From Armatimonadota bacterium (GTDB lineage Bacteria; Armatimonadota; HRBIN16), in NCBI GenBank assembly GCA_040289885.1, contig PSLZ01000016.1, forward strand, positions 1,551-65,550: a stretch of DNA of 64,000 nt. Direction: 5' to 3'. Position 1 is the first letter of the stretch; each line of letters begins with the position of its first letter. The notes under the pieces are model-generated. The model saw only the letters and a program-made list of their open reading frames with translations, had not been told where the DNA came from and searched no databases. The position numbers were made by a program, and so were the translations under genes. Below, piece by piece: positions 21,063 through 61,605 of the stretch.

Positions 21063-22531
21063 TTGGTGGTGAGAGCAATGCGGAAGGTGCAACGGCGAAT
21101 GTCTACGGGCATCGCCGGGCTGGACGAAGTGCTCGGTGGTGGGCTCATTCCTCAGCGTGCGTACCTCTTGCGGGGTGCTCCGGGCACAGGCAAGACACTG
21201 GTCGGACTGCATTTCCTAGCGGCGGGCGCACGGCGCGATAACCCATTGTTCATTGCGATGGAAGAGCCCGAGTATAAAATCCGTCAAAGCGCCGCCAGCA
21301 TGGGGTTGGACCTGCGTGGGGTACACTTTCTGAACCTCAGTCTATCTTCGGAGTTTTTTGCTCAGGCACAGACCTATGACCTGTTTGCGCCAGCAGAAGT
21401 AGATCGCTCGCCCACGACCAACTTGGTGGTGGAGCGCGTACGCGCGCTAAAGCCCAGCGGGTGTTTGTGGATTCGATGACCTACTTCCGCTACCTTGTGC
21501 CCAATGAGTTCGAGTACCGCAAGCAGGTCTTGTCGTTCCTGCGCTTTCTGGCGGACCAGGGCGCGACGGTGATGTTCACCTCCGAAAGCACTGTTCTGGC
21601 GCCGGATGATGACCTGCAAGCACTCAGCGATGGGGTCATCCATCTGGAGATGAACGGTGGCAACAGACGGCTGAGCGTGACCAAAATGCGGTGCAGTGCG
21701 TTCCGCTTGGGATGGCATGCCCTGCGTATCGATAAGCGGGGTCTGCGCGTATATCCCCATCTGCTTCCCGATCCCGGGCGTTTTACTGCCGTTCAGGAAC
21801 AGATTCCGTCGGGCATGCCTGCGCTGGATGAGCTTCTGCATGGCGGACTGGAACGGGGCACCATTGTGTTGATCACGGGTGCAAGCGGGGTCGGCAAGAC
21901 CACGTTGGGGATGCAGGTCATGAAGGAGGCGGCTACACGGGGGGAGCGATCGGTGGTATACACGTTCGAGGAGGAAGTGGCGCATATCCTGAGCCGGTGT
22001 GCCGCAGTGAGCATCCCTGCGAGGGAGATGAGCGAGCAGGGAACGCTCTCGTTGGTAAAGGTAGAGCCGTTACAGCATTCCGCCATCGAGTTCGCCTACC
22101 TGGTGCGCGACGAGGTGGAGAGGCGTGGGGCGCGCATCGTCATGATAGATAGCGTGGCAGGCTATCGACTGGCTCTGCATGGGGAAGACCTGGTGGGGCA
22201 ACTGCACGCGCTGTGTAAGTGGCTACAAAGCCGCGGCGTGCTAACGCTTCTGATCAACGAGACGCATGCCGTGTCGGGTCCATTGCTGGTCAGCGAAGTG
22301 GGGCTGAGCGATCTCGCGGACACGGTGCTGTTCCTGCGCTATGCGGAGAAGTACGCCCCTGAACGAACGGAGCTGACGCGGATCATCGGCGTGTTGAAGA
22401 AGCGGCTGAGCGACTTTGACCACACCGTTCGGGAGTTTCGCATCACCGCGCAGGGTGTTCAGATAGGACAGCCGATCCCTCATTGGCGCAACATCGTGGC
22501 AGACACACCAGTGTGGGGAGAGCGACCATGA
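21063..22531 (+). CDS. KaiC-like double RecA-superfamily ATPase (COG0467). It is interrupted by an apparent -1 frameshift near 21465-21480.
   Basis: Domain 1: GIAGLDEVLGGGLIPQRAYLLRGAPGTGKT. Domain 2: GMPALDELLHGGLERGTIVLITGASGVGKT. The frame change falls between ...RALKPSG and RVFVDSMTYF, the position of the KaiC RVxIDS motif. Confidence 0.7.
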
Positions 22532-23610
22532 ATCGCCTGCTTCTGATGCTGGCAAACCGAGCGAACCTGCGCCTGCTCGAGGAGACGCTAGCGGTGCGTT
22601 ACACCGCTACCCCGTTCGACGAGTCGCGGTATCGCGGCTCCTTACGCTCATGTGACCTGGTGATTGTGGACGGTGTCATGCTGGAGCGATACATGGACGC
22701 CATTTCGCAGGCGAAACAAGACGCTCTGCCGACGTTTCTGCCAGTTCTGCTCGTGACCTCACGGCAGGGAGCCGGGTTGGCAACGCGCAATCTGTGGAGG
22801 TCTATTGATGGAGTGATGCTCACACCGATTCAGCGGGTGGACCTCCAGGCGTGGGTGGAGGTGATGTTGCGAACGAGACAGCTCTCTCTGGAGCTGTATC
22901 AGCGCAACCAGGAGCTGGAGGCGTTTGTACATGCCGTAACGCACGAGCTGCGTGCCCCGCTACGTGCCATGACGGGCTTCGCCGAGGCGGTGATGGAGGA
23001 TGCCGGACTGCCGACAGACAGTGAGCCCTTCAGATACCTCCAGCGCATCGCCGAAGCGGCGCAGGAGATGAAGCGGGTTCTGGATTCTCTGCTGACCTTT
23101 ACTCGTCTCGGCAGGGAAGTGGAGATTCAACCAGTGTGGCTGAAGCCGCTGATAGACATCTGCTTGCGCGAGCTAGAACAGGAAATCACCCGGACGATGG
23201 CGCAGATAGAGTACAGCCTACAGTGCGAAGTGGTGGAATCCGATGCTTTGCTACTCAAGACGGTTATGAACAATCTGATTTCCAACGCGTTGAAGTTTCG
23301 CTTTAAGGAGAGACCGGTTTACGTACATATCTCCGCTTATCCGCGCGGAGAGTTCTGCCGTATCGAGGTGCAGGACAACGGCATCAGCATCCCACCCGAG
23401 GATACCGAGCGGGTGTTCGCTCCCTTCACGCGACTGCACGGCGTGGAGGAGTATCCGGGTGTGGGGTTGGGGTTGAGTATCGTCAAAAAGGCGGTCACAT
23501 CCATGAACGGACGATGTGGGGCGGTGTCACGCCTCAACGAGGGAAGCACGTTCTGGATCGAACTGCCGCTGACAGAGGATAACGGCGATGAGAGTGCTAT
23601 TGATAGATGA
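22528..23610 (+). CDS. Sensor histidine kinase with an N-terminal receiver-like (pseudo-receiver) domain.
   Basis: Its ATG overlaps the KaiC stop (ATGA). H-box HAVTHELRAPL, N-box NLISNALKF, G-boxes DNGISIPPE and GVGLGLSIV. Confidence 0.8.
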   Translation: MNRLLLMLANRANLRLLEETLAVRYTATPFDESRYRGSLRSCDLVIVDGVMLERYMDAISQAKQDALPTFLPVLLVTSRQGAGLATRNLWRSIDGVMLTPIQRVDLQAWVEVMLRTRQLSLELYQRNQELEAFVHAVTHELRAPLRAMTGFAEAVMEDAGLPTDSEPFRYLQRIAEAAQEMKRVLDSLLTFTRLGREVEIQPVWLKPLIDICLRELEQEITRTMAQIEYSLQCEVVESDALLLKTVMNNLISNALKFRFKERPVYVHISAYPRGEFCRIEVQDNGISIPPEDTERVFAPFTRLHGVEEYPGVGLGLSIVKKAVTSMNGRCGAVSRLNEGSTFWIELPLTEDNGDESAIDR

Positions 23611-25165
23611 GAACCCGAACGACCGGGAACTGATTAAGAGGTATTTGCGCAAACACATTGCGGACCTGCACGTGATCGAAGTGCCAAATCACGAACGCTT
23701 CAAGAAGGCGCTGGAAAGCGGAGGCTTTGATATCGTGCTGACTGACTATCATCTGCACTGGTCGGATGGGCTGACGGTTCTACAAGCCGTTAAGCTTCAG
23801 TATCCGCATATCTCCGTCATCATGGTGACCGATTCGGGGAGCGAGGAGATCGCCGTACAGGGGATGCGCGAAGGGCTCAGCGACTATGTGCTGAAAGGGC
23901 ATTTGGCGCGCCTGCCCAATGCGATGGTAGAGGCTATCGAGCGCGAAAGGCTGAAGCAGGAACACGCCGAGGCGGTTCAAGAGCTCCAACGGTCGCACCA
24001 GGCGCTTCAGGAGGCGATGAAGCAACTGCAGGAGACGCAACAGCAGGTGATTCAACAGCAGCGCCTGCATGCACTGGGCGAGATGGCAAGCGGGATTGCG
24101 CACGACTTCAACAACGCGCTCACACCCATTCTGGGGTTGACCGAGCTTCTGCTCGATAATCCCAGCGTCACTGTGGACCCACAGGTGCGTCGGTATCTGG
24201 AGATGATTCACACCGCGGCGCAAGATGCTGCGCAGACGGTTAGCCGTCTGCGCGAGTTCTACCGCCCTCGGGGACGCGCGGAGTTGCGCCAATCGGTAGA
24301 CGTGAATGAACTAGTGCAGGAGACGGTGGAACTGACCTCCCCGCGCTGGCGGGAACAGGCGGAAGCGAAAGGGGCTTTCATCCACATGCATGCCGACCTA
24401 CAGCCTGTCCCCCTCGTTTCGGCAAACGGTGGCGAACTGCGGGAGGTGCTGCAGAACCTTATCTTCAACGCGGTAGATGCGCTTCCGCGCGGCGGCGATA
24501 TTATCATCCGCACCCGCACGGTGAGCGAATCGGCGCGGTGCTGGGTGGTGATGGAGGTGGAGGATAACGGCATTGGGATGGACGAGGAGACGCGCGCCCG
24601 CTGTTTCGAGCCGTTCTTCAGCACCAAAGGGGAGCAAGGTTCGGGATTGGGGCTGGCGATGGTATACGGTATCGTTCAGCGGCACGATGGCAGAGTCGAT
24701 GTAGACAGCACAGTGGGCAAGGGAACGGCGGTGCGGGTGCACCTGCCTGTGGATCCCGTGCAAACCACCGCTATGGTCGTTCGAGAGGATTCCGCCCCTC
24801 AGCGTCCTCTGCGAATCCTGTGCGTGGAAGACAAGCCCCTCGTGCGTGAAGTTATCGTGGAGCATCTGCTCAGGCAGGGGCACACGGTAGAAGTGGCGTC
24901 GGACGGCAAGCAGGGGCTAGAGCGGTTCCTAGCGTCGCGCTACGACCTGGTGATCACCGACTTGGCGATGCCTGTCATGAACGGGGAACAGTTGGCAGTG
25001 GAGATCAAGAAGATTGCCCCCAACAAGCCCATCATTTTGCTCACCGGTTTTGGCGACCCGCGCCTGGCGCAAAACGCTTATTCCGACCTGGTGGACTGTG
25101 TGTTGATTAAGCCCGTTACGCTTTTCGCGCTGAGGCAAGCCATTGCCAAGGTCACCGCGGAGTAG
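23588..25165 (+). CDS. Hybrid histidine kinase / response regulator (REC-HisKA-HATPase-REC).
   Basis: REC1 [10 protein letters not shown]...VLTDYHL. H-box [10 protein letters not shown]. HATPase VEDNGIGMD...[12 protein letters not shown]2 [13 protein letters not shown]...VITDLAMP. It overlaps the upstream kinase by 23 nt. Confidence 0.8.
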
Positions 25166-25203: not shown

Positions 25204-25692
25204 ATGTCGCAACCACTGGTTGGGATACTGATGGGCAGTGATTCGGACCTGCCGGTGATGAAGCAGGCAGCGGAGGTGCTGGAGCAGTTTGGCGTTCCGT
25301 ATGAGATGCGCGTGTCTTCGGCGCACCGCACACCGTTTGATACCATCGAGTATGCCCGCACGGCGTACGAGCGCGGCTTGCGGGTGATTATCGCCGGCGC
25401 GGGGGGCGCGGCACACCTGCCGGGTGTACTGGCTGGCGTGACCACTTTGCCGGTGATCGGCGTGCCTATCGAGAGCAAGCTGCAGGGGCTGGACTCTCTG
25501 CTCTCCATCGTGCAGATGCCGTCGGGGGTTCCGGTGGCAACGGTAGCCATCGGCGGCGCACGCAACGCAGGCATTCTGGCGGTGCAGATACTGGCAACAG
25601 GTAACCCCGAACTGCACGCCAAGCTGGTGGAGTTCAAACAGCAGCTCGCCGAGCAATCGCGTGAGAAGAACCGGAAACTACAGGAAGGATAG
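25204..25692 (+). CDS. purE: 5-(carboxyamino)imidazole ribonucleotide mutase PurE.
   Basis: Motifs [39 protein letters not shown] and [23 protein letters not shown] before ATG 25204. Confidence 0.9.
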
Positions 25693-26739
25693 ATGGAAGA
25701 CAAGCGTTTGCGGCTAACTCAACTGGTACGCTGTGCGGGTTGAGCGAGCAAGCTGGGACCCACCCAGCTGGCGCAGGTTCTGCGTCAGTTCCCCGACATC
25801 GCTCATCCCGACCTGCTGGTAGGGGTTGACACCCGCGACGATGCAGGAGTGTTTCGCGTCCGCGAGGACCTGGCGCTCGTGCAGACGGTGGATTTCTTCA
25901 CGCCCGTCGTGGATGAGCCCTACTGGTACGGCGCCATCGCTGCCGCAAACAGCTTCAGCGACGTGTACGCGATGGGGGGCACACCGCTCACCGCGCTGAA
26001 CCTGGTGTGCTTCCCCATCGACAGCGCTCCCGCGGACATCCTCGCGGACATCCTGCGCGGCGGCTACGATAAGGCACAGGAGGCTGGCGTGGTGATACTG
26101 GGTGGGCACAGCGTGGACGACCCCGAGCCCAAGTACGGGATGGCGGTGACGGGAGTGGTGCACCCGCAGAAGGTGATCACCAACGCCGACGCCAAGCCGG
26201 GCGACCTGCTGGTGTTGACCAAACCGCTGGGCACGGGCATTATCACCACGGCAGCCAAGTTCGACGAGTGCCCTGCCGACGTGCTGGATGAGGCAATACG
26301 GGTGATGGCAGCGCTCAACGCCGGCGCAGCGCAGGCGATGCAGGAAGTGGGCGTGCACTCCGCCACAGACGTCACCGGATTCGGGCTGATCGGGCACCTG
26401 CACCAGATGGCGCAGGCAAGCGGGGTGGCGATACGCCTCCATGCCGGGCGGGTTCCGCTGTTACCAGCGGCGGAGCGGTTGGCTCTGCAGGGCAACACCA
26501 CGCGCGGAGGAAGCCTGAACCGCGAGTATGTGGCAGAGCTTCTGCGCTTTAGCGACCGCGTGCCGCTATCTCTACAGCATGTTCTGCTCGACCCTCAAAC
26601 GTCCGGGGGACTGGTGATCGCGGTGGAGCCGGAGCGTGTGTCCGCACTGTTAGAGGCACTGCACGCCCGCCAGACCCCTTGCGCCGAGGTCATCGGAGAG
26701 GTTCTGGAAGGACAGCCGGGGCAGATTGTGGTGGAGTAG
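25693..26739 (+). CDS. selD: Selenide, water dikinase SelD. It is a selenoprotein with in-frame UGA (Sec) at 25741-25743.
   Basis: ATG 25693 follows the purE stop directly. MEDKRLRLTQLVRCAG-U-ASKLGPTQLAQVL aligns with E. coli [20 protein letters not shown] (Sec at the Cys17 position, Lys20 kept). Downstream blocks VDFFTPVVDEPYWYGAIAAANSFSDVYAMGG and HSATDVTGFGL are SelD. The ORF track starts at 25849 only because of the UGA. Confidence 0.85.
25744..25775 (+). promoter_or_regulatory. SECIS-like hairpin immediately 3' of the selD UGA.
   Basis: agctggg-accca-cccagct (7-bp GC-rich stem, 5-nt loop) starts 8 nt after the UGA. This matches the bacterial SECIS placement. Confidence 0.5.
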
Positions 26740-27646: not shown

Positions 27647-28333
27647 CTATTTGGGCTGAGCGGGCGAGGCTGGGCGGAAGGCGGGATAGCCCCGGCTCTC
27701 CATCATCTCACCGATACGGCACATCACCTCCCGGCTGAAGGCGTCCCGTGCCTGACGGTCGCTCTCGTAGCGCTGGGCGAACTGCTCGTAGTACATCGGC
27801 TCGCCGAAGATGACCTTCAGGCGATGCCAACGGGGCAGGCGGGGGTCGGCGGGCAGGATTTCGCGCGTGCCGATGACCGCAGTAGGCACCACGGGCGCAC
27901 CGCTCATCTTTGCCAACAGTGCCACGCCGGTCTGAGGCTCCAGCAGGTAGCCATCTCCACTGCGTGTGCCCTCGGGGAACATAATCAACACTTCGCCTAG
28001 GCGGAGCACCTCCAGTGCCGTGCGCAGTGCCTGGCGGTCGGCGGCGTTCTGGTGCACCGGGAAACAGCCCATGCGCCGAATGTACCAGCCCAGAAGGGGT
28101 ATCTTGAACAGCGGCGCCTTGCCCATGAAACAGCAGCGGCGAGGCCAAGCAGCGCATCCCACCACTGGCGCGTCCATGTAGCTGGTGTGGTTTGGAGCCA
28201 GGATCGCCGCGCCGGGCGGGATGTTTTCGTGTCCTTCCACCTTCATCCCGAAGAAGAGGCGCAGGATGGGGCACACCACCCAGCGCGAGATCAGGTAGAG
28301 GGCTGGGCTTCGTTCGTGAACCGGGCACGGCAT
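27647..28333 (-). CDS. plsC: 1-acyl-sn-glycerol-3-phosphate acyltransferase PlsC.
   Basis: APNHTSYMDAPVV (NHxxxxD) and FPEGTRS motifs. The start was taken at MPCPVHE (28333). The 486-aa track ORF is a read-through artefact across cmk. Confidence 0.8.
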   Translation of the reverse strand: MPCPVHERSPALYLISRWVVCPILRLFFGMKVEGHENIPPGAAILAPNHTSYMDAPVVGCAAWPRRCCFMGKAPLFKIPLLGWYIRRMGCFPVHQNAADRQALRTALEVLRLGEVLIMFPEGTRSGDGYLLEPQTGVALLAKMSGAPVVPTAVIGTREILPADPRLPRWHRLKVIFGEPMYYEQFAQRYESDRQARDAFSREVMCRIGEMMESRGYPAFRPASPAQPK

Positions 28334-28974
28334 ATCCTCAGCACCTCCTCCACCACCTGCTCCAGAGTCATGTTGTCGGTGTCGATAATGACCGCGTCGG
28401 GTGCAGGGCGCAGGGGAGCGACGTGGCGTATGCTGTCGCGCTGGTCGCGGGCAGACATGTCCAGTTTGACCTGATGGAAGGAGATGTCGATGCCTCGCTC
28501 CAGCAGTTCCTTGTGGCGTCGGCGGGCGCGTTCCTCTATCGATGCGGTGAGGAAGATCTTCACCTGCGCGTTCGGAAAGACCACCGTGCCCGTGTCCCGT
28601 CCTTCGGCGACGGTGCCGCCCTGTTTTGCGAAGTCTCTCTGCCAGTCCAGCAGTATCTCGCGCACTTCGGGGATGGCGGAAATCGGCGAAGCGAGGTTGG
28701 CGACCTCCGGCGCGCGGATGGCTTCCGTAACATCCTCGCCGTCCACCAGCACGCGCTGTTCCCCGTTGTGCTGTTGCAGGTCCACTTTCGTCGCTCGGGT
28801 CATGTCCACGATGTAGCGGGTGTCCTGCGGGCGCAGGCCGTTCTTGATCGCCTTCCATGCCAGCGCGCGATACAGCGCCCCTGTGTCCAGGTAGCGGTAA
28901 CCCAGCGCCTGCGCCACCCGCTTTGCCACACTGCTCTTGCCCGCGCCGGCAGGCCCGTCGATAGCGATAACCAT
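28291..28974 (-). CDS. cmk: Cytidylate kinase Cmk.
   Basis: MVIAIDGPAGAGKSSVAKRVAQALGYRYLDTGALYRA P-loop and Cmk N-terminus. Confidence 0.9.
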   Translation of the reverse strand: MVIAIDGPAGAGKSSVAKRVAQALGYRYLDTGALYRALAWKAIKNGLRPQDTRYIVDMTRATKVDLQQHNGEQRVLVDGEDVTEAIRAPEVANLASPISAIPEVREILLDWQRDFAKQGGTVAEGRDTGTVVFPNAQVKIFLTASIEERARRRHKELLERGIDISFHQVKLDMSARDQRDSIRHVAPLRPAPDAVIIDTDNMTLEQVVEEVLRICRARFTNEAQPST

Positions 28975-28979
28975 CTGCT

Positions 28980-30278
28980 TCACGGCGCACCTCCTTCCAG
29001 CTCCTGGAGCTTTCCGAAGAAGTTCGGAAAGGTTTTTTGCACGCACTCCGGGTCGGCGATGGCGATGCCCGGCACGCGCAATCCGATGAGCGCAAACGCC
29101 ATCGCAATCCGATGGTCGTTGTAGGTTTGCACGGTGCCCCCTCGGGGCGTGCCCGGGTAGATGGTCAGCCCATCATCATGTTCTTCCACATTCACGCCCA
29201 GCCGTTTCAGTTCGTTTGCTACCGCGCTGACCCGGTTGCTCTCTTGATAGCGGGCGTGTTCCACGCCCCGGATGCGGGTTGGACTGTCGGCAAAGGGAGC
29301 CACCACCGCCAGCGTGATGAAGGTGTCCGAAATGTCCGACATGTTCACATCCACGCCATGCAGAGCCGAGGTGCCCGCTACTTCCACCCCATCTGGTAGC
29401 CAGCGTACGGTACATCCCATCTGTTCCAGAATGTCCACAAAGCGGATGTCACCTTGCAGGGAGTGCCGGTTCAATGCCGGGATGCGCACACGCCCGCCGG
29501 TTATCCCTGCTGCGGCGAAGAAGTAGGAGGCGGCGGTAGCATCGGGCTCGACGGGATATACCGCTTGGTCTTTCAACTGGTAGCGCTGGGGCGCGGGTAC
29601 GATGATGCGTGCATGCTCTTCCTCCCAGCAGGCGTCCACCCCGAACTGTCGCATCATGCGCAGGGTCATTTGCACGAAAGGCGCGGATACTAAGGCTCCC
29701 TCAAGACGTATGGTGACCGTGCCGGAGGCGCAAGGCGCCACCATCATCAGCGCGGAGAGGAACTGACTGCTGATGTCGGCGCGCACGGCGACCTCTCCCC
29801 CTTTCAGCCCGCGCGCCCGCACCACCACGGGCGGACAACCAGTGCCCGCTTCTGAAAACGCCTCGGCTCCCAGAGCGTTGAGGGCATCCAGCAAGGGCTG
29901 GATGGGGCGCTGGCGCATCCGCGGCGTGCCGTCTATCCGATAGGTTCCCTTGCCTAGCGCGACCAGCGCGGTAAGGAAGCGCGCCGCGGTGCCGGCATTC
30001 GCCACCCACAGGTCCGCCTGCGTCGCGGGGATTTTGCCCCCCTCTCCCCGGATGACGAGGGTTTCCGGTTGCGGTTGGCTTAGTCGGAATCCCAGCCTGC
30101 TCAGGCTCTCCTGCATCACGCGCGTATCTTCCGAGTCGAGCGCATGGGTGATGGTCACCTCCTGCGGGCACAGGCTCGCCAGCAACAAAGCGCGGTTCGT
30201 GATGCTTTTGGAGCCCGGCAGACTCACGGAGGCATCGGGTGGAGCGTGGAGAGGGACGATTTGGTGCACGGAGGTCAT
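28980..30278 (-). CDS. aroA: 3-phosphoshikimate 1-carboxyvinyltransferase (EPSP synthase) AroA.
   Basis: 432 aa with motifs LPGSKSITNRALLLA and NAGTAARFLTA. Confidence 0.9.
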   Translation of the reverse strand: MTSVHQIVPLHAPPDASVSLPGSKSITNRALLLASLCPQEVTITHALDSEDTRVMQESLSRLGFRLSQPQPETLVIRGEGGKIPATQADLWVANAGTAARFLTALVALGKGTYRIDGTPRMRQRPIQPLLDALNALGAEAFSEAGTGCPPVVVRARGLKGGEVAVRADISSQFLSALMMVAPCASGTVTIRLEGALVSAPFVQMTLRMMRQFGVDACWEEEHARIIVPAPQRYQLKDQAVYPVEPDATAASYFFAAAGITGGRVRIPALNRHSLQGDIRFVDILEQMGCTVRWLPDGVEVAGTSALHGVDVNMSDISDTFITLAVVAPFADSPTRIRGVEHARYQESNRVSAVANELKRLGVNVEEHDDGLTIYPGTPRGGTVQTYNDHRIAMAFALIGLRVPGIAIADPECVQKTFPNFFGKLQELEGGAP

Positions 30279-44826: not shown

Positions 44827-45479
44827 TTCTCGGGGACCTTTGGTCCAGGGGGTATCGGCGGTCTGCCAGACGGCGTTTTGAGCATCTTGGTGTACCGCTC
44901 GATGCGCTCCTGGTACATTTTGACCTGCGGGTCGGTATCGGGCTTGCCCTGTTTCTTCAGTTTTGCCAACTGCTCTTTGGCTATTTCGATCTGCTTGGCG
45001 ATGATTTGCGGGGGCATAGTCATGCCTGGTGGCATGCCGGGTGGAGCCTGGAAGGCTTCAGGGTTCTCTTTGCGCCATCGCTCCATTGCCGCTTTCTGCC
45101 ATGCCCTATAGACGGCATCCCGTTTTTTGATCACCTCCGCGAGCTGCTTGACCAGCTCCAGCTTTTGCGCGTCCAATCGTTTGCGCTCTGCTGGGTCCTG
45201 TGTGCTGAAGCGTTTCCTGTCCAGCTCTACCGACCGGTTGATCAGGGCATCTCGCTGTTTCTCCAGCTGATGCAGTTGTGCAGCCAGAGCCTTCTCCCGC
45301 GGGCTGGGGTTGGGCTTCTTCTTGGGCAGCGGTGCCCCCTTTGGCAGGTTCAGCATCTCCTCCTTGATGATCGCCGGCTTGGGCACAGGCTTAGGGGTTT
45401 GCGTCTTTTCCTGTGCAAAGGCGATGCTGGTCGCCAGGAAGACTGCGGTCACAGCAACCGCAATCAAAGATTTCACCAT
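44823..45479 (-). CDS. Hypothetical periplasmic coiled-coil protein (Lys/Pro-rich), translationally coupled to mutL.
   Basis: AGGAGG SD before ATG 45479. Signal peptide MVKSLIAVAVTAVFLATSIAFAQ. Helical charged repeats. Confidence 0.55.
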   Translation of the reverse strand: MVKSLIAVAVTAVFLATSIAFAQEKTQTPKPVPKPAIIKEEMLNLPKGAPLPKKKPNPSPREKALAAQLHQLEKQRDALINRSVELDRKRFSTQDPAERKRLDAQKLELVKQLAEVIKKRDAVYRAWQKAAMERWRKENPEAFQAPPGMPPGMTMPPQIIAKQIEIAKEQLAKLKKQGKPDTDPQVKMYQERIERYTKMLKTPSGRPPIPPGPKVPEK

Positions 45480-56371: not shown

Positions 56372-56446
56372 TGGAGCGGGAGACGGGACTCGAACCCGCG
56401 ACATCCAGCTTGGGAAGCTGGCGTTCTTCCACTGAACTACTCCCGC
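56372..56446 (-). tRNA. tRNA-Gly (anticodon CCC).
   Basis: Reverse complement GCGGGAGTAGTTCAGTGGAAGAACGCCAGCTTCCCAAGCTGGATGTCGCGGGTTCGAGTCCCGTCTCCCGCTCCA. Anticodon loop UUCCCAA. T-tract after the 3' end. Confidence 0.9.
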
Positions 56447-56556
56447 TCACTCTACACCAATATTCTACACCTGCTTTCCACCGTTGTCAAGGATTCTGCA
56501 GAGGGAGGTTGAACAAAAAATCGCGGGCAATTCCCCTTGTCCATCCCCCAACTCCC

Positions 56557-56585
56557 TTGACACCCGATGCGAGTTAGGGTTAAAT
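56557..56585 (+). promoter_or_regulatory. Near-consensus sigma-70 promoter (TTGACA-17-TTAAAT) upstream of the decayed regulator.
   Basis: ttgaca at 56557-56562, 17-nt spacer, ttaaat at 56580-56585. Confidence 0.45.
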
Positions 56586-56599
56586 GGACGAACAGATAC

Positions 56600-56830
56600 T
56601 CTACGGGCAAACCTATTGTACGTACACTGAAGGAGAACATTCTCAGCGGCAGTTACCCGCCCGGCCCGCAGTTGCCAACTGAGGCAATGGACGAGACGGT
56701 TCGTGGTCAACCGGGTGACGGTACGCAACGCCCTGGCACTGATTCAGCGCGAAGGGCGGTGGTGCGCATTCCCGCCAGAGGCACTTTTGTGCGACGCAAT
56801 GAACCACTCTCTTCCCCACCAAAGTCTCTA
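56600..56830 (+). pseudogene. Remnant of a GntR-family (AraR-like?) transcriptional regulator. Its HTH is split across frames by at least two indels.
   Basis: Frame A reads VRTLKENILSGSYPPGPQLPTEA. Frame B reads RRFVVNRVTVRNALALIQREGRW. Frame A resumes with VRIPARGTFV. Together these reconstruct a canonical GntR winged HTH. There is no intact ORF longer than about 70 codons. Confidence 0.45.
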
Positions 56831-57083
56831 CGCATGGGCGCGGAAGCCGTCCGCCTCCTGATACGTCGGCTTCGGAACCCAGACCTTTCCGCCCAGCATG
56901 TCGTTTTTTACCAGTTGACCTGTATGTGCGCTCTACGACGGTACCTGCCACCGCTGTGGTGCACTAGATCCCGATGCGCTATAATATGCCAAGGAAGGTT
57001 CGCCCCCCAGGGGGGAACCTTGTGGGAGGCGTACGACCGTTCATGCGGGAGGAAAAGAAATACCCGCGACCGATCAGCGGGCG

Positions 57084-57569
57084 ATGCTGTTGGCAATTGC
57101 GGTCAGCGTAGTGGCGTCGGTATGGAGCACTCTGGTTTTAGCCTGTCGCTACGGCGGAGCAAACCTGAACAGCTGGTTCTTCATCGACGGTCCCCAGTTC
57201 CCCTACAAGGGGGCGGCAGGCAAGATCATCAATCCCTCGGACCCTAGCATCACCGGCTGGTTGCTCACAGGCGGAGGGGCAGGGGTCATGGGTTTCCTGA
57301 GCGCGATGCGCCAACGGTTTGTGGGATGGCCTTTCCATCCTGTCGGATTCTGCGTCGGGAGCACGTGGGTCGTGGGCGCGCTGTGGCTGACCTGCCTTGT
57401 CGCGAGGTTGGTGAAGTTGCTCATCCTACGCTTTGGGGGACTGCGCGGGTTTCGGACGTCCCTCCCCTTCTTCCTGGGATTGATTGTCGGACAGTACACG
57501 TGCAACGGTTTCTGGCTGGTGATGGACTACTTCAGCAGCGCAAAGGGCAATCGGATATTCTGGATCTGA
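57084..57569 (+). CDS. Small hypothetical membrane protein (4 TM, 161 aa).
   Basis: ATG 57084 is the only in-frame start after the stop at 56982. Hydrophobic segments. No family assigned. Confidence 0.4.
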   Translation: MLLAIAVSVVASVWSTLVLACRYGGANLNSWFFIDGPQFPYKGAAGKIINPSDPSITGWLLTGGGAGVMGFLSAMRQRFVGWPFHPVGFCVGSTWVVGALWLTCLVARLVKLLILRFGGLRGFRTSLPFFLGLIVGQYTCNGFWLVMDYFSSAKGNRIFWI

Positions 57570-57638
57570 TGTGGCATCATCCGAACGGCAAGGGTATAAT
57601 GCACTTGCAATGCCTTCAGGGGAGGTGCACAACACTCC

Positions 57639-58001
57639 ATGCCCATCTACGAGTACCGGTGCAACGCTTGCCGAAAGCGATTTAGCGTGCTGGTGGGAGT
57701 GATCGCCCAAGATGACCCTCTGCAATGTCCGCGCTGTGGGGCTACGGAGGTCACCCGCCTGATCTCGCGCTTTGCTCGCCTGCGCAACGAGGATGACCTG
57801 ATGGACGACATGCTGGACCCCGACCGAATCGGTGACCCCGAGGACCCCAAAACCATGCGCCGCTGGGTCAAGGAGATGGGCAAAGAGCTGGGCGAGGACT
57901 TCGCCGACGAGTTCGATGAACTGCTGGTGGAGGAAGAGAAAAAGGGCGCGTCGGGCGAGGGGGAGAGTGAATCGGACGACACAGGCGACGACCTGCTCTA
58001 A
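57639..58001 (+). CDS. FmdB-family zinc-ribbon protein with an acidic C-terminal tail.
   Basis: MPIYEYRCNACRKRFSV...LQCPRCG (CxxC...CxxC). The 3' end overlaps the selB end. Confidence 0.75.
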   Translation: MPIYEYRCNACRKRFSVLVGVIAQDDPLQCPRCGATEVTRLISRFARLRNEDDLMDDMLDPDRIGDPEDPKTMRRWVKEMGKELGEDFADEFDELLVEEEKKGASGEGESESDDTGDDLL

Positions 58002-59905
58002 TCCGGCTCCGCCAGTACGCGTTCATCCCCTACTCGGCGAGTCAGGCGGATGCTGTCGAAGTACTCTAGCAAGGGCACTACGAACTTCCGGCTGGAGCCG
58101 GTGAGGTCGCGAAACTCCCCGACGCTCAACGAACCCTTCTGCCGTATCGTGCGGCGCACCAGCTCCGCCAGCTCCTGAATCACCTCCTGATGAAAGAACA
58201 GCTCCTCTTCCAACCGCACCAGCACCCCCATCTCCACCAGAACCTGTATCATCGCCCGCACGGCATCGGGAGGTGCCCCCACCTGTTGCGCGATGACGGC
58301 GACCGGCGGGGGAGTGCTCCCGCCCTCACGAATAACCTGCGCTACACGCTCTGCCAACCGCTGCTGACGCTCGTTGAGGCGAATAGAGAAATCCGCCAGC
58401 CGTACCAGCGCACCCTGCGAGGCGATCACTCCCTCCTCCTGCCAGCGAGTGAGCAATGCCTCAAAGAGGCGTGGTGAGAGGTGCCTAGCTGTGGTGGAGC
58501 GCAGTTCCTCGCGAGGCATGCCGGCACGCAAGGGGTTCTGTTGATGGTAGCGTTCCAGAGCTTGCCGCACTCGCTCCAGCAGTTCCTGCCAGACGCTCCG
58601 GGCAAACCATCGCTCGCCGACGCGCAGAACCTGCCCTTCTTGCTCCAGCCGTTGGAGCCACTGCGAAACGCGGGAGACATCGGTTTCGGCGCGACGGGCA
58701 AGCTCTAAGGCGTCCAAACCCTCTGGAGCCTGCGCCAGGATCGCCAGCACGCGCTCCGCCGGCTCGCCAGTCAACAGTGACCCCAGATGCGCTATCACGA
58801 CGGGGGCAAATCGCTTGTGCCGAGGCGCGTGCGGCTCGAGCACCACTCCACCCCCGAGGGTGAACATGGGCGAATAGGTGCGGATGACAAAGCGGTCCCC
58901 ACGTGCGCAAACCAGGGGCTCTTCCAGCCGTATCTGCACGAACCCCTGCGCCCCCAGCTCCAGACGTTCGTTGTCCAACAGAGACACCCGCCCGATTACC
59001 TCTGCCGTGCCCAGATACACCCGTATCCGCGTCCGGTGAGCCAGTGCTTTGACCGCATCGGGAAGAAGCGTCACCTGCGCGTCAAAGGCTTGCGTCGAAC
59101 GGAACAGACCGGGCGGCACGCACACCATCCCGCGCTCGATGGCTGTTTTCTCCACACCGGGTAGGTTGATAGCGACCCGACTGCCTGCAACCGCCTCCTC
59201 CACCCTGCGTCCGTGCACCTGTATCTGCCTCGCCCGAGTCGTAATCCCCACGGGCAATATCTCGATGGCAGAGCCTACGCCAATCCTGCCGCTGACCAGC
59301 GTGCCGGTAACCACAGTGCCCGCCCCAGCCAGCGTGAACACCCGGTCAATGGGCAACCGAAAGGGAGCGTTGGTCTCGCGAGGGGGCACGCGTTCTACCG
59401 CCTCCTGCAGAGCAAGGCGTAGTGCGTCCAGCCCCTGCCCCGTCACCGCCGACACTGCAAGCACCGGCGCATCCCTCAACGGCGTATCCTGCAAGAACCG
59501 ACGCACCTCTTCGGTAACCAGCTGAAGCCACTCCTCGTCCACCAAGTCGCACTTGGTCAGCGCCACCACTCCTGCTTTCACGTCCAGCAGGCGCAGGATG
59601 TCTAGATGCTCGCGCGTCTGGGGCATGATGCCCTCATCGGCGGCGATTACCAGCAGAACCACGTCCACGCCGCCCGCGCCCGCCAGCATGTTTTTGAGGA
59701 ACCGCTCGTGTCCGGGCACGTCTACGATCCCGACCACCTGCCCGCCCGGCAGAGTGAGCGAGGCGAACCCCAGGTCTATCGTCATGCCCCGCTCCTGCTC
59801 TTCCTTCAGGCGGTCGGGATTGATGCCGGTCAAGGCGGTGATCAGCGTGGACTTGCCGTGGTCCACGTGCCCTGCTGTGCCGATGATGACGTGCTTGTGC
59901 TCCAT
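57998..59905 (-). CDS. selB: Selenocysteine-specific translation elongation factor SelB.
   Basis: N-terminus [21 protein letters not shown], then DVPGHERF and ALTKCD G-domain motifs. 635 aa with C-terminal winged-helix SECIS-binding region (...[33 protein letters not shown]). Confidence 0.9.
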
Positions 59906-59968
59906 CCTGCCGTGCCCCGCTTTCGTGTGCCGATTCTGTGCCTAACAGTATACCTCCTGTGCAGGAGA

Positions 59969-59997
59969 TTTGACAAAAGGATGGCGAAAGCGTATAA
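59969..59997 (+). promoter_or_regulatory. Perfect consensus sigma-70 promoter (TTGACA-17-TATAAT) for the OMP/prs/gatC/rlmN run.
   Basis: ttgaca at 59969-59974, spacer aaaggatggcgaaagcg, tataat at 59992-59997. An approx 70-nt leader with hairpin cagcaggcaacagcgggcgcactgctg. AAGGAGG SD before GTG 60072. Confidence 0.55.
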
Positions 59998-60071
59998 TGC
60001 TGGCGAACGACAGCAGGCAACAGCGGGCGCACTGCTGTCATCATCACGAATTCGCAAAAGGAGGAGTGTGA

Positions 60072-60608
60072 GTGAAAGGCTTATCTCGTGTGACAGCGCT
60101 GTTGAGCCTGGCGCTGACGCTGAGCGTGTTGGGTGCACCGCAGGCTCGGGCACAGTTTGACAACACAGCCACCGATGTCAGCATCCGCGTGGGAGCTAAC
60201 GTGGTCAACCGAGCCTCCATGCGCACGGTCGGCGATGTGTGGCTGGCGATCGGCGCGGATGTGAAACTGCGCGGAGGCTCGTTGATCGGCGAGGGTGAGA
60301 TGCTTCTGGGAATAGACCACTATACCCGCAGTCAGGGCGGTCAAACCGCCAGCATCACCGCCATCACCCTCACGCAGGTGTTCTCGGTAGACCCCACCGA
60401 GCGGTTCAAAGGCTACATCGGGCTGGGCGCAGGCGCATACGTGCTGAAGCCTTCGGGCGTCAGCGCCAAGACGGTGTTTGGCGGCAAACTGGTGCTCGGC
60501 TACGACATCAATGAAAAACTCTTCGTGGAACTGGACTACCATCTCACCGGCAAAGAGATGGACTTCCGCGGGGATAGCACCACCATCCTCGTGGGCTATC
60601 GCTTCTAG
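60072..60608 (+). CDS. Outer-membrane beta-barrel protein (OmpW/OmpA-like porin-family fold) with a signal peptide.
   Basis: Signal MKGLSRVTALLSLALTLSVLGAPQARAQ. Alternating amphipathic beta strands. C-terminal ...ILVGYRF with terminal Phe, typical for BAM substrates. Confidence 0.75.
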   Translation: MKGLSRVTALLSLALTLSVLGAPQARAQFDNTATDVSIRVGANVVNRASMRTVGDVWLAIGADVKLRGGSLIGEGEMLLGIDHYTRSQGGQTASITAITLTQVFSVDPTERFKGYIGLGAGAYVLKPSGVSAKTVFGGKLVLGYDINEKLFVELDYHLTGKEMDFRGDSTTILVGYRF

Positions 60609-60613
60609 GGCAC

Positions 60614-60636
60614 AGGGGCGGTGCTCTACCGCCCCT
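60614..60636 (+). terminator. GC-rich hairpin immediately after the OMP gene (possible attenuator/terminator, no strong U-tract).
   Basis: aggggcgg-tgctcta-ccgcccct. Confidence 0.35.
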
Positions 60637-60648
60637 TGACCACCTGGG

Positions 60649-61605
60649 ATGAAACAACGTCGACCGCTGAAGCTGTTTGCCGGGAATGGAAACCCTGACC
60701 TTGCCCAGCGTATCGCCGCCGAGCTGGGCACACCACTGGGTCAATTGCTTCTACGCCGGTTCAGCGACGGAGAGATACGCATCGAGTGCGATGAGAGCGT
60801 GCGCGGATGCGATGTGTTCGTGATCCAGTCGTTCTGCTCGCCCATCCATGACCACCTGATGGAACTGCTCATCCTGCTGGACGCTCTGCGACGCGCCTCC
60901 GCCGCGCGTCTGACGGCGGTCATCCCCTATTTCGCCTACGCCCGCCAGGAGAAGCGTGCCTCCCCGCGCGACCCCGTGCCCGCCAAAGTGGTGGCGGATA
61001 TGCTGACTACCGCGGGTGCAGACCGGGTGATCACCATGGACCTGCACGACGAGGCGATTGCAGGCTTCTTCCACATCCCGGTGGACGACCTCAGCGCGCT
61101 GTCGATGCTGGTGCGCCACTATGTCGCCCAACGCGAGCCGCAAACCGTGGTCGTGGCGCCTGATGCGGGAGCGGTGCGTCTGGCGCGTGCGCTTGCTACC
61201 CGACTGAACGCCCCGCTGGCGGCTGCTTACACGCGCGGACATGCCGATAGCCCCACCCATGTACGGTTTGCCGGGGACGTACAGGGTCTGAAGCCGCTCA
61301 TCGTGGAAGACATGATCGTCACCGGCAGGCGGTTGGAAACCTGTATGCATGCGCTTCTGCGGCGCGGATGCCTGCCCGAAATCCGGGTCGCAGCCACGCA
61401 TGGGGTGTTTGCAGGCGACGCCCTTCAGCGCGTCATGCTTCCGGAGGTGGTGGAGCTGGTGGTCACCGACACCCTCCCGCAAACGCATAAGCATCCCCGC
61501 GTCACCGTGCTCCCGACCGCCCATCTGTTTGCAGAAGCCATCCGAAGAGCGTATAATAACAGGATGCTGGACCTTTCGCTGACACTCGCACGAATCACCG
61601 ACTGA
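60649..61605 (+). CDS. prs: Ribose-phosphate pyrophosphokinase Prs.
   Basis: Motifs KLFAGNGNPDLAQRIA, DLHD and the PRPP-binding loop LIVEDMIVTG. Confidence 0.9.
   Translation: MKQRRPLKLFAGNGNPDLAQRIAAELGTPLGQLLLRRFSDGEIRIECDESVRGCDVFVIQSFCSPIHDHLMELLILLDALRRASAARLTAVIPYFAYARQEKRASPRDPVPAKVVADMLTTAGADRVITMDLHDEAIAGFFHIPVDDLSALSMLVRHYVAQREPQTVVVAPDAGAVRLARALATRLNAPLAAAYTRGHADSPTHVRFAGDVQGLKPLIVEDMIVTGRRLETCMHALLRRGCLPEIRVAATHGVFAGDALQRVMLPEVVELVVTDTLPQTHKHPRVTVLPTAHLFAEAIRRAYNNRMLDLSLTLARITD

Follow-up and report, generated by a model that had tools for sequence, protein, structure and literature searches.

The selenophosphate synthetase SelD of Haemophilus influenzae and of Aquifex aeolicus contains selenocysteine (Sec), and mutagenesis in E. 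coli revealed that the loop holding Sec/Cys17 and Lys20 is essential for catalysis. SelD is the second most widespread selenoprotein family of bacteria, with its Sec in the N-terminal loop (PMC1794560, PMC13188914), and has been listed in Sec-containing form for Anaeromyxobacter, Geobacter, Moorella and Clostridium (PMC1794560). For the bacterial selenocysteine insertion sequence (SECIS), the bSECISearch consensus of Zhang and Gladyshev (2005), in the outline that PMC13188914 gives of it, comprises a stem of 4-16 bp, a loop of 3-9 nt with a G in its first two positions (N1-G-[G/U]-N-N2), a distance of 16-37 nt between UGA and loop, and an MFE (minimum free energy) of at most -7.5 kcal/mol. The conserved loop G usually sits ~20 nt downstream of the UGA, and ~13 nt suffice to span the gap from the A site to the loop (PMC4605307). 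Here we analyze a selD gene with an in-frame UGA that lies in a stretch of 64,000 nt from an Armatimonadota bacterium (contig PSLZ01000016.1 of assembly GCA_040289885.1, positions 1,551 to 65,550; hereafter the window, in whose own numbering all positions are given). Judged from sequence comparison, the gene very probably encodes a complete SelD of 348 residues whose nucleophile is Sec17, specified by the UGA at 25741-25743, and recoding would proceed via SelB and a SECIS, most probably a hairpin that we call hp2.

The start codon of selD (ATG, 25693) directly abuts the stop codon of purE (TAG, 25690-25692). Translated, 25693-26739 comprises 348 sense codons, and TGA occurs inside the frame only once, at codon 17, in agreement with the first-pass annotation, a model's reading of the same DNA, which had described an in-frame UGA at this position downstream of the ATG next to purE. 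The N-terminus reads MEDKRLRLTQLVRCAG-UGA-ASKLGPTQLAQVL, and the residues directly after the UGA are ASKLGP. Upstream of selD, a Shine-Dalgarno-like sequence can be read, and a CAGGNAG(G/C) motif is kept in the relatives. The juxtaposition of purE and selD is also present in three of them (L001-L003), and the two genes probably form one operon.

The mechanical open reading frame (ORF) call starts only at 25849, 52 codons late, and loses the catalytic N-terminus, a truncation that had likewise been noticed at first pass. The databases reveal the same picture. All 38 closest database proteins (73-100% identity, 286-328 aa, covering 82-94% of the query) begin past the UGA, including identical truncated entries of 296 aa (P0001-P0004) and 286 aa (P0005-P0008). 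Four fallback starts occur after the UGA among the retrieved entries (MGPTQLAQVL, MAQVLRQ, MLRQFP and MFRVRED/MQTVDFF), some of which are NCBI and JGI records named selenide, water dikinase. Gene callers end the frame at the UGA and resume further down, so that every close database entry lacks the catalytic loop, and truncated selD calls extend to the whole Armatimonadota clade. Mis-annotation of SelD in general has already been described by the authors of BSepDB.

For profile scoring of the full-length protein, the UGA was replaced by Cys. The product scored 379.3 bits against TIGR00476 (cutoff 125), with the match starting at residue 7, and 344.9 bits against NF002098 (cutoff 299) over residues 2-347, so that the alignment of the 348-aa product to SelD families, which had been suggested as a check, came out above both cutoffs. 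The identical truncated proteins are recorded with PF00586 and PF02769 (AIRS and AIRS_C). Residues 2-347 align collinearly with residues 2-344 of E. coli SelD (3u0o, E = 1e-71), and collinearity extends to the structure sequences 2yye/2zod, which we take to be the Sec-to-Cys form of Aquifex aeolicus SelD. At the residue level (3u0o and 2yye), U17 (TGA) and K20 (AAG) fall on Cys17 and Lys20 of the E. coli enzyme; the residue-for-residue match to the E. coli loop that had been claimed from the letters is therefore real. Full-length Cys-type relatives (55-57% identity) read ...AGCASK... or ...AGCAAK... at the UGA site. By family membership the product is a full-length selenophosphate synthetase, for which ATP-dependent synthesis of selenophosphate is predicted.

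The loop of the window protein carries a Ser in place of Cys19 of E. coli and has a CAG-U-A[AS]K motif in common with Sec-type SelDs of Myxococcaceae, Desulfosporosinus and Geomesophilobacter. Two motif classes of Sec-type SelD can be distinguished: G-A-G-U-A-C-K, with a Cys at +2 (compare Cys19 of E. coli), and C-A-G-U-A-[AS]-K, to which the window protein belongs, with a Cys at -3 and none at +2. In the latter class the second cysteine seems, from the alignment, to have moved across to the opposite side of the Sec.

We compared the locus with 80 genome relatives, 80 metagenome relatives and a set of seven Armatimonadota orthologues that includes the window (the others being L001-L003 and L094-L096). 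The nearest genome loci are Armatimonadota metagenome-assembled genomes with 80-85% identity. TGA is kept at codon 17 in all seven orthologues, the 16 codons upstream of it differ almost only at third positions, and the 35 codons from the UGA to 25849 are protein-conserved as well, with mainly synonymous differences. In the larger sets, codon 17 is TGA in 50 genome relatives and TGC/TGT in the other 30; the metagenome relatives have TGA in 77 of 80 cases, the remainder being Cys except for one locus without a motif match. TGA-type selD genes are spread over Gemmatimonadota, Myxococcota, Actinomycetota, Chloroflexota and Firmicutes. TGA terminates about one third of the window's long ORFs, so the code is standard and not reassigned, and the UGA of selD is a special case. 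By its position on the Cys17 codon and its conservation, the in-frame UGA is more than a chance occurrence.

Constraint is also visible at the nucleotide level. In the four genome-derived orthologues, variable third positions number 5 of 15 in codons 18-32 and 246 of 334 in the rest of the gene (Fisher p = 0.0017). An invariant stretch of 20 nt, the longest in selD, covers 25759-25778 and reaches from the 3' arm of one hairpin (hp1) through the 5' arm of a second (hp2) to the first loop base of the latter. The first of these, hp1, is the 7-bp GC stem that the first-pass annotation had proposed as SECIS-like. Folded alone, hp1 has -11.2 kcal/mol and hp2 has -8.6 kcal/mol, and in each case 1 of 200 shuffles was as stable. 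The 60-nt segment starting at the UGA, whose folding had been recommended, does form hairpins, but its energy is only modestly unusual (z = -1.83, with 8 of 200 shuffles equal). The comparative evidence is the strong part.

For covariation analysis, the 66 nt from the UGA onward were aligned, without gaps, in two sets, A1 with 51 genes of the UGA type and A2 with 30 of the Cys type. The hp2 stem was paired in 93.7% of the alignment cells of A1 vs 41.0% of those of A2, the latter being the level of the slid controls. High pairing in UGA-type genes together with control-level pairing in Cys-type genes marks hp2 as a structure specific to Sec-type genes. In A1, ten pairs had double changes, 0 of 500 shuffles came up to the observed covariation, and slid controls were paired at 25-45%. 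A clear compensatory pair is formed by columns 33 and 43 of hp2, which appear as G-C (Ala GCG/Arg CGN), C-G (GCC/Gly GGC) and U-A (GCU/Ser AGC); column 33 is the synonymous third base of an Ala codon and column 43 the first base four codons on. Of the 51 UGA-type sequences, at least 90% have a G at column 37 and all have a U at column 38. Columns 10-11, in the Lys20 codon, are an invariant AA in UGA and Cys groups alike. Within the Armatimonadota, all seven sequences retain 7 of 7 hp2 pairs, and one change there, G31 to A, replaces Ala by Thr and turns a G-U pair into A-U. The 66-nt fold also predicted a closing helix that encloses the two hairpins, UGAGCGA/UCGCUCA (25741-25747 with 25799-25805), which we rejected with 39% pairing in UGA-type genes, as in shuffled and slid controls.

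Against the four criteria of the bSECIS consensus, as PMC13188914 outlines them, hp2 agrees on all: it has a 7-bp stem, the apical sequence G36-G37-U38-U39-C40, a distance of 33 nt, which is near the far end of the allowed spacing, and the energy given above. On the same outline, hp1 departs from two of the four, with a loop (ACCCA) that contains no G and lies 14 nt after the UGA, where the minimum is 16. The stem put forward at first pass is thus a real, conserved and stable structure, but it does not conform to the SECIS consensus; hp2, directly downstream of it, fits instead.

It is nevertheless conceivable that hp1 itself is the SECIS bound by SelB and that hp2 is incidental or accessory. 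We regard this as unlikely. hp1 is the more stable of the two hairpins and the one nearer to the UGA; UGA-type genes have it paired more often (84.6% of cells in A1 vs 63.3% in A2), and its inner pairs covary, 16:24 being G-C 23 times and C-G 16 times. In addition, a hairpin with a G in its loop occupies about the position of hp1 in L017 and in actinobacterial loci. Against this stand the two departures from the consensus and the breakage of pair 12:28 in 4 of the 7 in-clade sequences, in all of which hp2 is intact. Moreover, part of hp1 is dictated by coding, since AAG-CUN ... [CG]AG-CUG contains the self-complementary AGCU. Because it is partly implied by the coding sequence, hp1 persists at 63% in Cys-type genes and also in L004, a Cys-type gene without hp2. 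As a conserved helix, hp1 may have a spacer or accessory role.

The wider alignment offers two further observations on these structures. In Actinomycetota, UGA-type selD genes (L025, L030, L038, L049 and L080) have no hp2 and carry the hairpin GCCCCAA-GGAC-UUGGGGC ~20 nt after the UGA; inspection of columns 16-41 after the UGA showed that a G-loop hairpin is also placed differently in Dehalococcoidia, in L017 and in L013/L071. By these alignments, the SelD family holds at least two or three putative SECIS layouts. Furthermore, three Cys-type selD genes of Gemmatimonadales (L004, L016 and L020) sit among UGA-type relatives and bear remnants of the structure: L004 has 6 of 7 hp1 pairs left and has lost hp2, and L016 still reads GGCGCAGGUCCUGCAGC. 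These three genes are consistent with a recent change from Sec to Cys, after which hp2 decayed.

The machinery search that had been recommended was successful in part, with selB, encoding the Sec-specific elongation factor, found in the window, but selA and selC not found in the ~71 kb covered. The SelB protein contains the Pfam domains Beta-barrel_SelB, SelB-wing_2 and SelB-wing_3, including the SECIS-binding winged-helix region. The gene stands alone, with neither selA nor selC as a neighbour: one flank has a Zn-ribbon protein gene, purA and tRNA-Gly(CCC), the other an OMP beta-barrel gene, prs, gatC and rlmN. Taken together, selD and selB probably mark the organism as a Sec user. Sec-type hydrogenases and a canonical selC have been reported in Armatimonadota (PMC13582414). 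A non-exhaustive scan of the window for other UGA-interrupted genes (long ORFs on both sides of a TGA, high GC content at third positions) gave only artefacts. These were wrong-frame or intergenic, such as position 45268, upstream of the gene for PBP1A, and position 28982, where aroA and cmk overlap. Two ORFs without a family in the 60-64 kb region were dropped, as the public gene calls lie on the other strand.

We envisage recoding as follows. With the ribosome arriving at the UGA, SelB, loaded with GTP and Sec-tRNA(Sec), would bind a hairpin just downstream, inside the coding sequence, and would deliver Sec, so that termination is avoided. The element bound is most probably hp2, with its 7-bp stem, its apical G-G-U-U-C containing the G-U of bacterial SECIS elements, and its position 33 nt after the UGA. 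The intervening hp1 may bring the UGA and hp2 effectively closer together or may simply be unwound by the ribosome. One may speculate that the folded hp1 loops out 19 nt, so that the distance between hp2 and the A site becomes canonical.

Several observations weigh against Sec insertion guided by hp2. The loop G of hp2 lies 33-34 nt after the UGA, compared to the ~20 nt that are typical (PMC4605307), and hp2 is a perfect 7-bp helix, unlike the E. coli fdhF SECIS, which has a bulged U in its 5' arm. The UGA region has no match in Rfam, also when E values up to 10 are admitted; Hammerhead_II (16 bits) and snoRNAs came up there as noise. The comparative samples are dominated by few clades, chiefly Gemmatimonadota, and the pair counts given above overstate the number of independent events. 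The search for selA and tRNA-Sec covered ~71 kb, that is the window with 7.5 kb on the left and ~0.9 kb on the right, which amounts to <5% of the genome. tRNA-Sec was found neither in the window by ARAGORN and Rfam nor in the flanks of the relatives; nesting in or near selB, as in some lineages, was considered, and a permissive Rfam scan of 56400-61000 was empty. No selA was present among the larger ORFs (NCBIfam) or among the Pfam labels of called genes in window and flanks. The right flank contains prs, gatC, rlmN and a protease/PDZ gene, the left one dnaA, nikR, an MCP gene and a methyltransferase gene; neither has sel genes. The window corresponds to a contig of 85,253 bp in ENA (ERZ1673964 NODE_43).

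Another possibility is that the UGA is read via SelB and the SECIS as Cys, instead of or beside Sec, by a Cys-charged tRNA-ReC (selC*), and that SelD is partly or wholly a Cys enzyme. According to PMC13582414, all 5 of the Armatimonadota genomes that carry UXXU hydrogenases contain tRNA-ReC-like genes in addition to a canonical selC, and tRNAs of this kind decode SECIS-linked UGA as Cys, for which the paper cites Vargas-Rodriguez et al. (2018). Cys-type SelDs are also functional in many bacteria, and 30 of the 80 genome relatives are of this type. However, no tRNA-ReC was found in the ~71 kb examined, and the genomes that bear it may not be close relatives of the window genome. Moreover, the UGA is maintained across the clade and not changed to UGY, which argues that Sec itself is selected. 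We therefore judge decoding as Cys to be quite improbable. A version in which both modes alternate, with Sec inserted when Sec-tRNA(Sec) is available and Cys inserted by tRNA-ReC when selenium or selenophosphate is lacking, strikes us as doubtful. If true, a Cys-SelD could bootstrap selenophosphate synthesis, and this would resolve the need of the enzyme for its own product.

That the UGA is a genuine stop, and selD a pseudogene or a gene whose functional product starts at 25849 or later, is very hard to believe: every gene caller annotates the truncated form and neither selA nor selC was found nearby, but the callers disagree among their four fallback starts, protein-level conservation with mainly synonymous differences holds on both sides of the UGA in all seven orthologues, a truncated product would be without the Sec/Cys17-Lys20 loop, and selB is present. 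The evidence from family membership, alignment, UGA conservation, a SECIS-consensus hairpin and selB thus upholds the first-pass designation of selD as a selenoprotein gene.

Table 1. Positions of selD, its signals and related genes in the 64,000-nt window
Feature	Position	Strand	Details
purE (N5-CAIR mutase)	25204..25692	+	TIGR01162 220 bits vs cutoff 150; 162-aa gene in public assemblies
Shine-Dalgarno-like sequence AGGAAGGA	25682..25689	+	ends 3 nt upstream of the selD ATG; read from sequence
Full-length selD (selenide, water dikinase)	25693..26739	+	348 aa, predicted Sec at residue 17; stop TAG 26737-26739
Cys14 codon TGT	25732..25734	+	three residues ahead of the predicted Sec; Gly in E. 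coli
Putative Sec-encoding UGA	25741..25743	+	codon 17, equivalent to Cys17 of E. coli SelD
Lys20 codon AAG	25750..25752	+	conserved catalytic Lys of the SelD N-terminal loop; aligned to 3u0o
hp1 (hairpin proposed at first pass), AGCUGGG-ACCCA-CCCAGCU	25751..25769	+	7-bp stem, starts 7 nt after the UGA
hp2 (best SECIS candidate), GGCGCAG-GUU-CUGCGUC	25770..25786	+	apical GUU 25777-25779; stem extendable to 25768-25788
Fallback start GTG	25849..25851	+	mechanical ORF call, 296 aa, 52 codons downstream of the ATG; without catalytic loop
selB (Sec-specific elongation factor)	57998..59905	-	635 aa; TIGR00475 426 bits vs cutoff 242

The surroundings of these genes show some features of their own. 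Directly upstream of purE-selD, the plus-strand region 21063-25165 encodes two KaiC-like ATPases (137 aa and 351-356 aa), then a histidine kinase and a hybrid kinase/response regulator, and looks like a KaiC-linked two-component signalling cluster. On the minus strand downstream of selD, a single ORF of 486 aa covers 27647-29107, where the public calls have two genes, cmk (230 aa) and one for an acyltransferase of PlsC type (228 aa); the start of cmk overlaps the stop of aroA at 28980-28982. With a dnaA gene (L091, 342-1748) close by, ~6-7 kb to the left of window position 1, the window probably lies near the chromosomal origin of replication. At the right end (~64000-64926 in contig terms; L085-L090), six independent assemblies from ENA, JGI and Logan stop within a few bases of each other, ~5.0 kb from the selB start, which suggests that the sequence just past the window is a repeat or varies among strains.

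The consequences of these data lie mainly in annotation. Database entries of this clade start past the UGA and are without the catalytic loop, and surveys of protein databases will therefore mis-score these Armatimonadota for Sec-SelD. The locus is also an example of mRNA structure that constrains a protein, in that the SECIS stem holds the LAQVLR segment of Sec-type SelDs, and the segment decays after a change of the UGA to UGY. Autoregulation of Sec-containing SelD is a hypothesis said to go back to Guimaraes and colleagues in 1996, and the auto-regulated selenium metabolism deduced at first pass may be a case of it. Since Sec-SelD is widespread and its mis-annotation is documented, the gene is of an already well-described kind; its value lies in annotation, and current selenium biology is unchanged.

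Compared to E. coli SelD (3u0o), the window protein conserves Lys20 and the remaining PurM-like fold, whereas E. coli encodes Cys17 by UGC and has no SECIS. The SECIS of E. coli fdhF, whose sequence is present, annotated as fdhF, in 5419 of 5426 genomes of E. coli, has a short GC-rich stem and a loop starting with G-G-U in common with hp2 (GCA-GGUUC-UGC in the window, GCA-GGUC-UGC in fdhF). The apex reads GCAGGUUCUGC in hp2 and GCAGGUCUGC in fdhF, and in both the G-U would be exposed for SelB. In contrast, hp2 starts 26 nt after the UGA, the fdhF element starts 11 nt after it, and hp1 fills the interval. By this analogy, hp2 appears to resemble the fdhF element in its working and is not a copy of it. 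With other bacterial Sec-SelDs, the window protein shares the family, the position of the UGA in the Gly-rich loop and the placement of the putative SECIS inside the coding sequence just downstream. It differs from them in its phylum, Armatimonadota, which is not named for SelD in the selenoproteome surveys compared here, and in the motif C-A-G-U-A-S-K in place of G-A-G-U-A-C-K. The LAQVLR-encoding hairpin, GGCGCAGGUyCUGCGyC, is near-identical by base in the window and in genes of Gemmatimonadota, Myxococcota and Desulfosporosinus.

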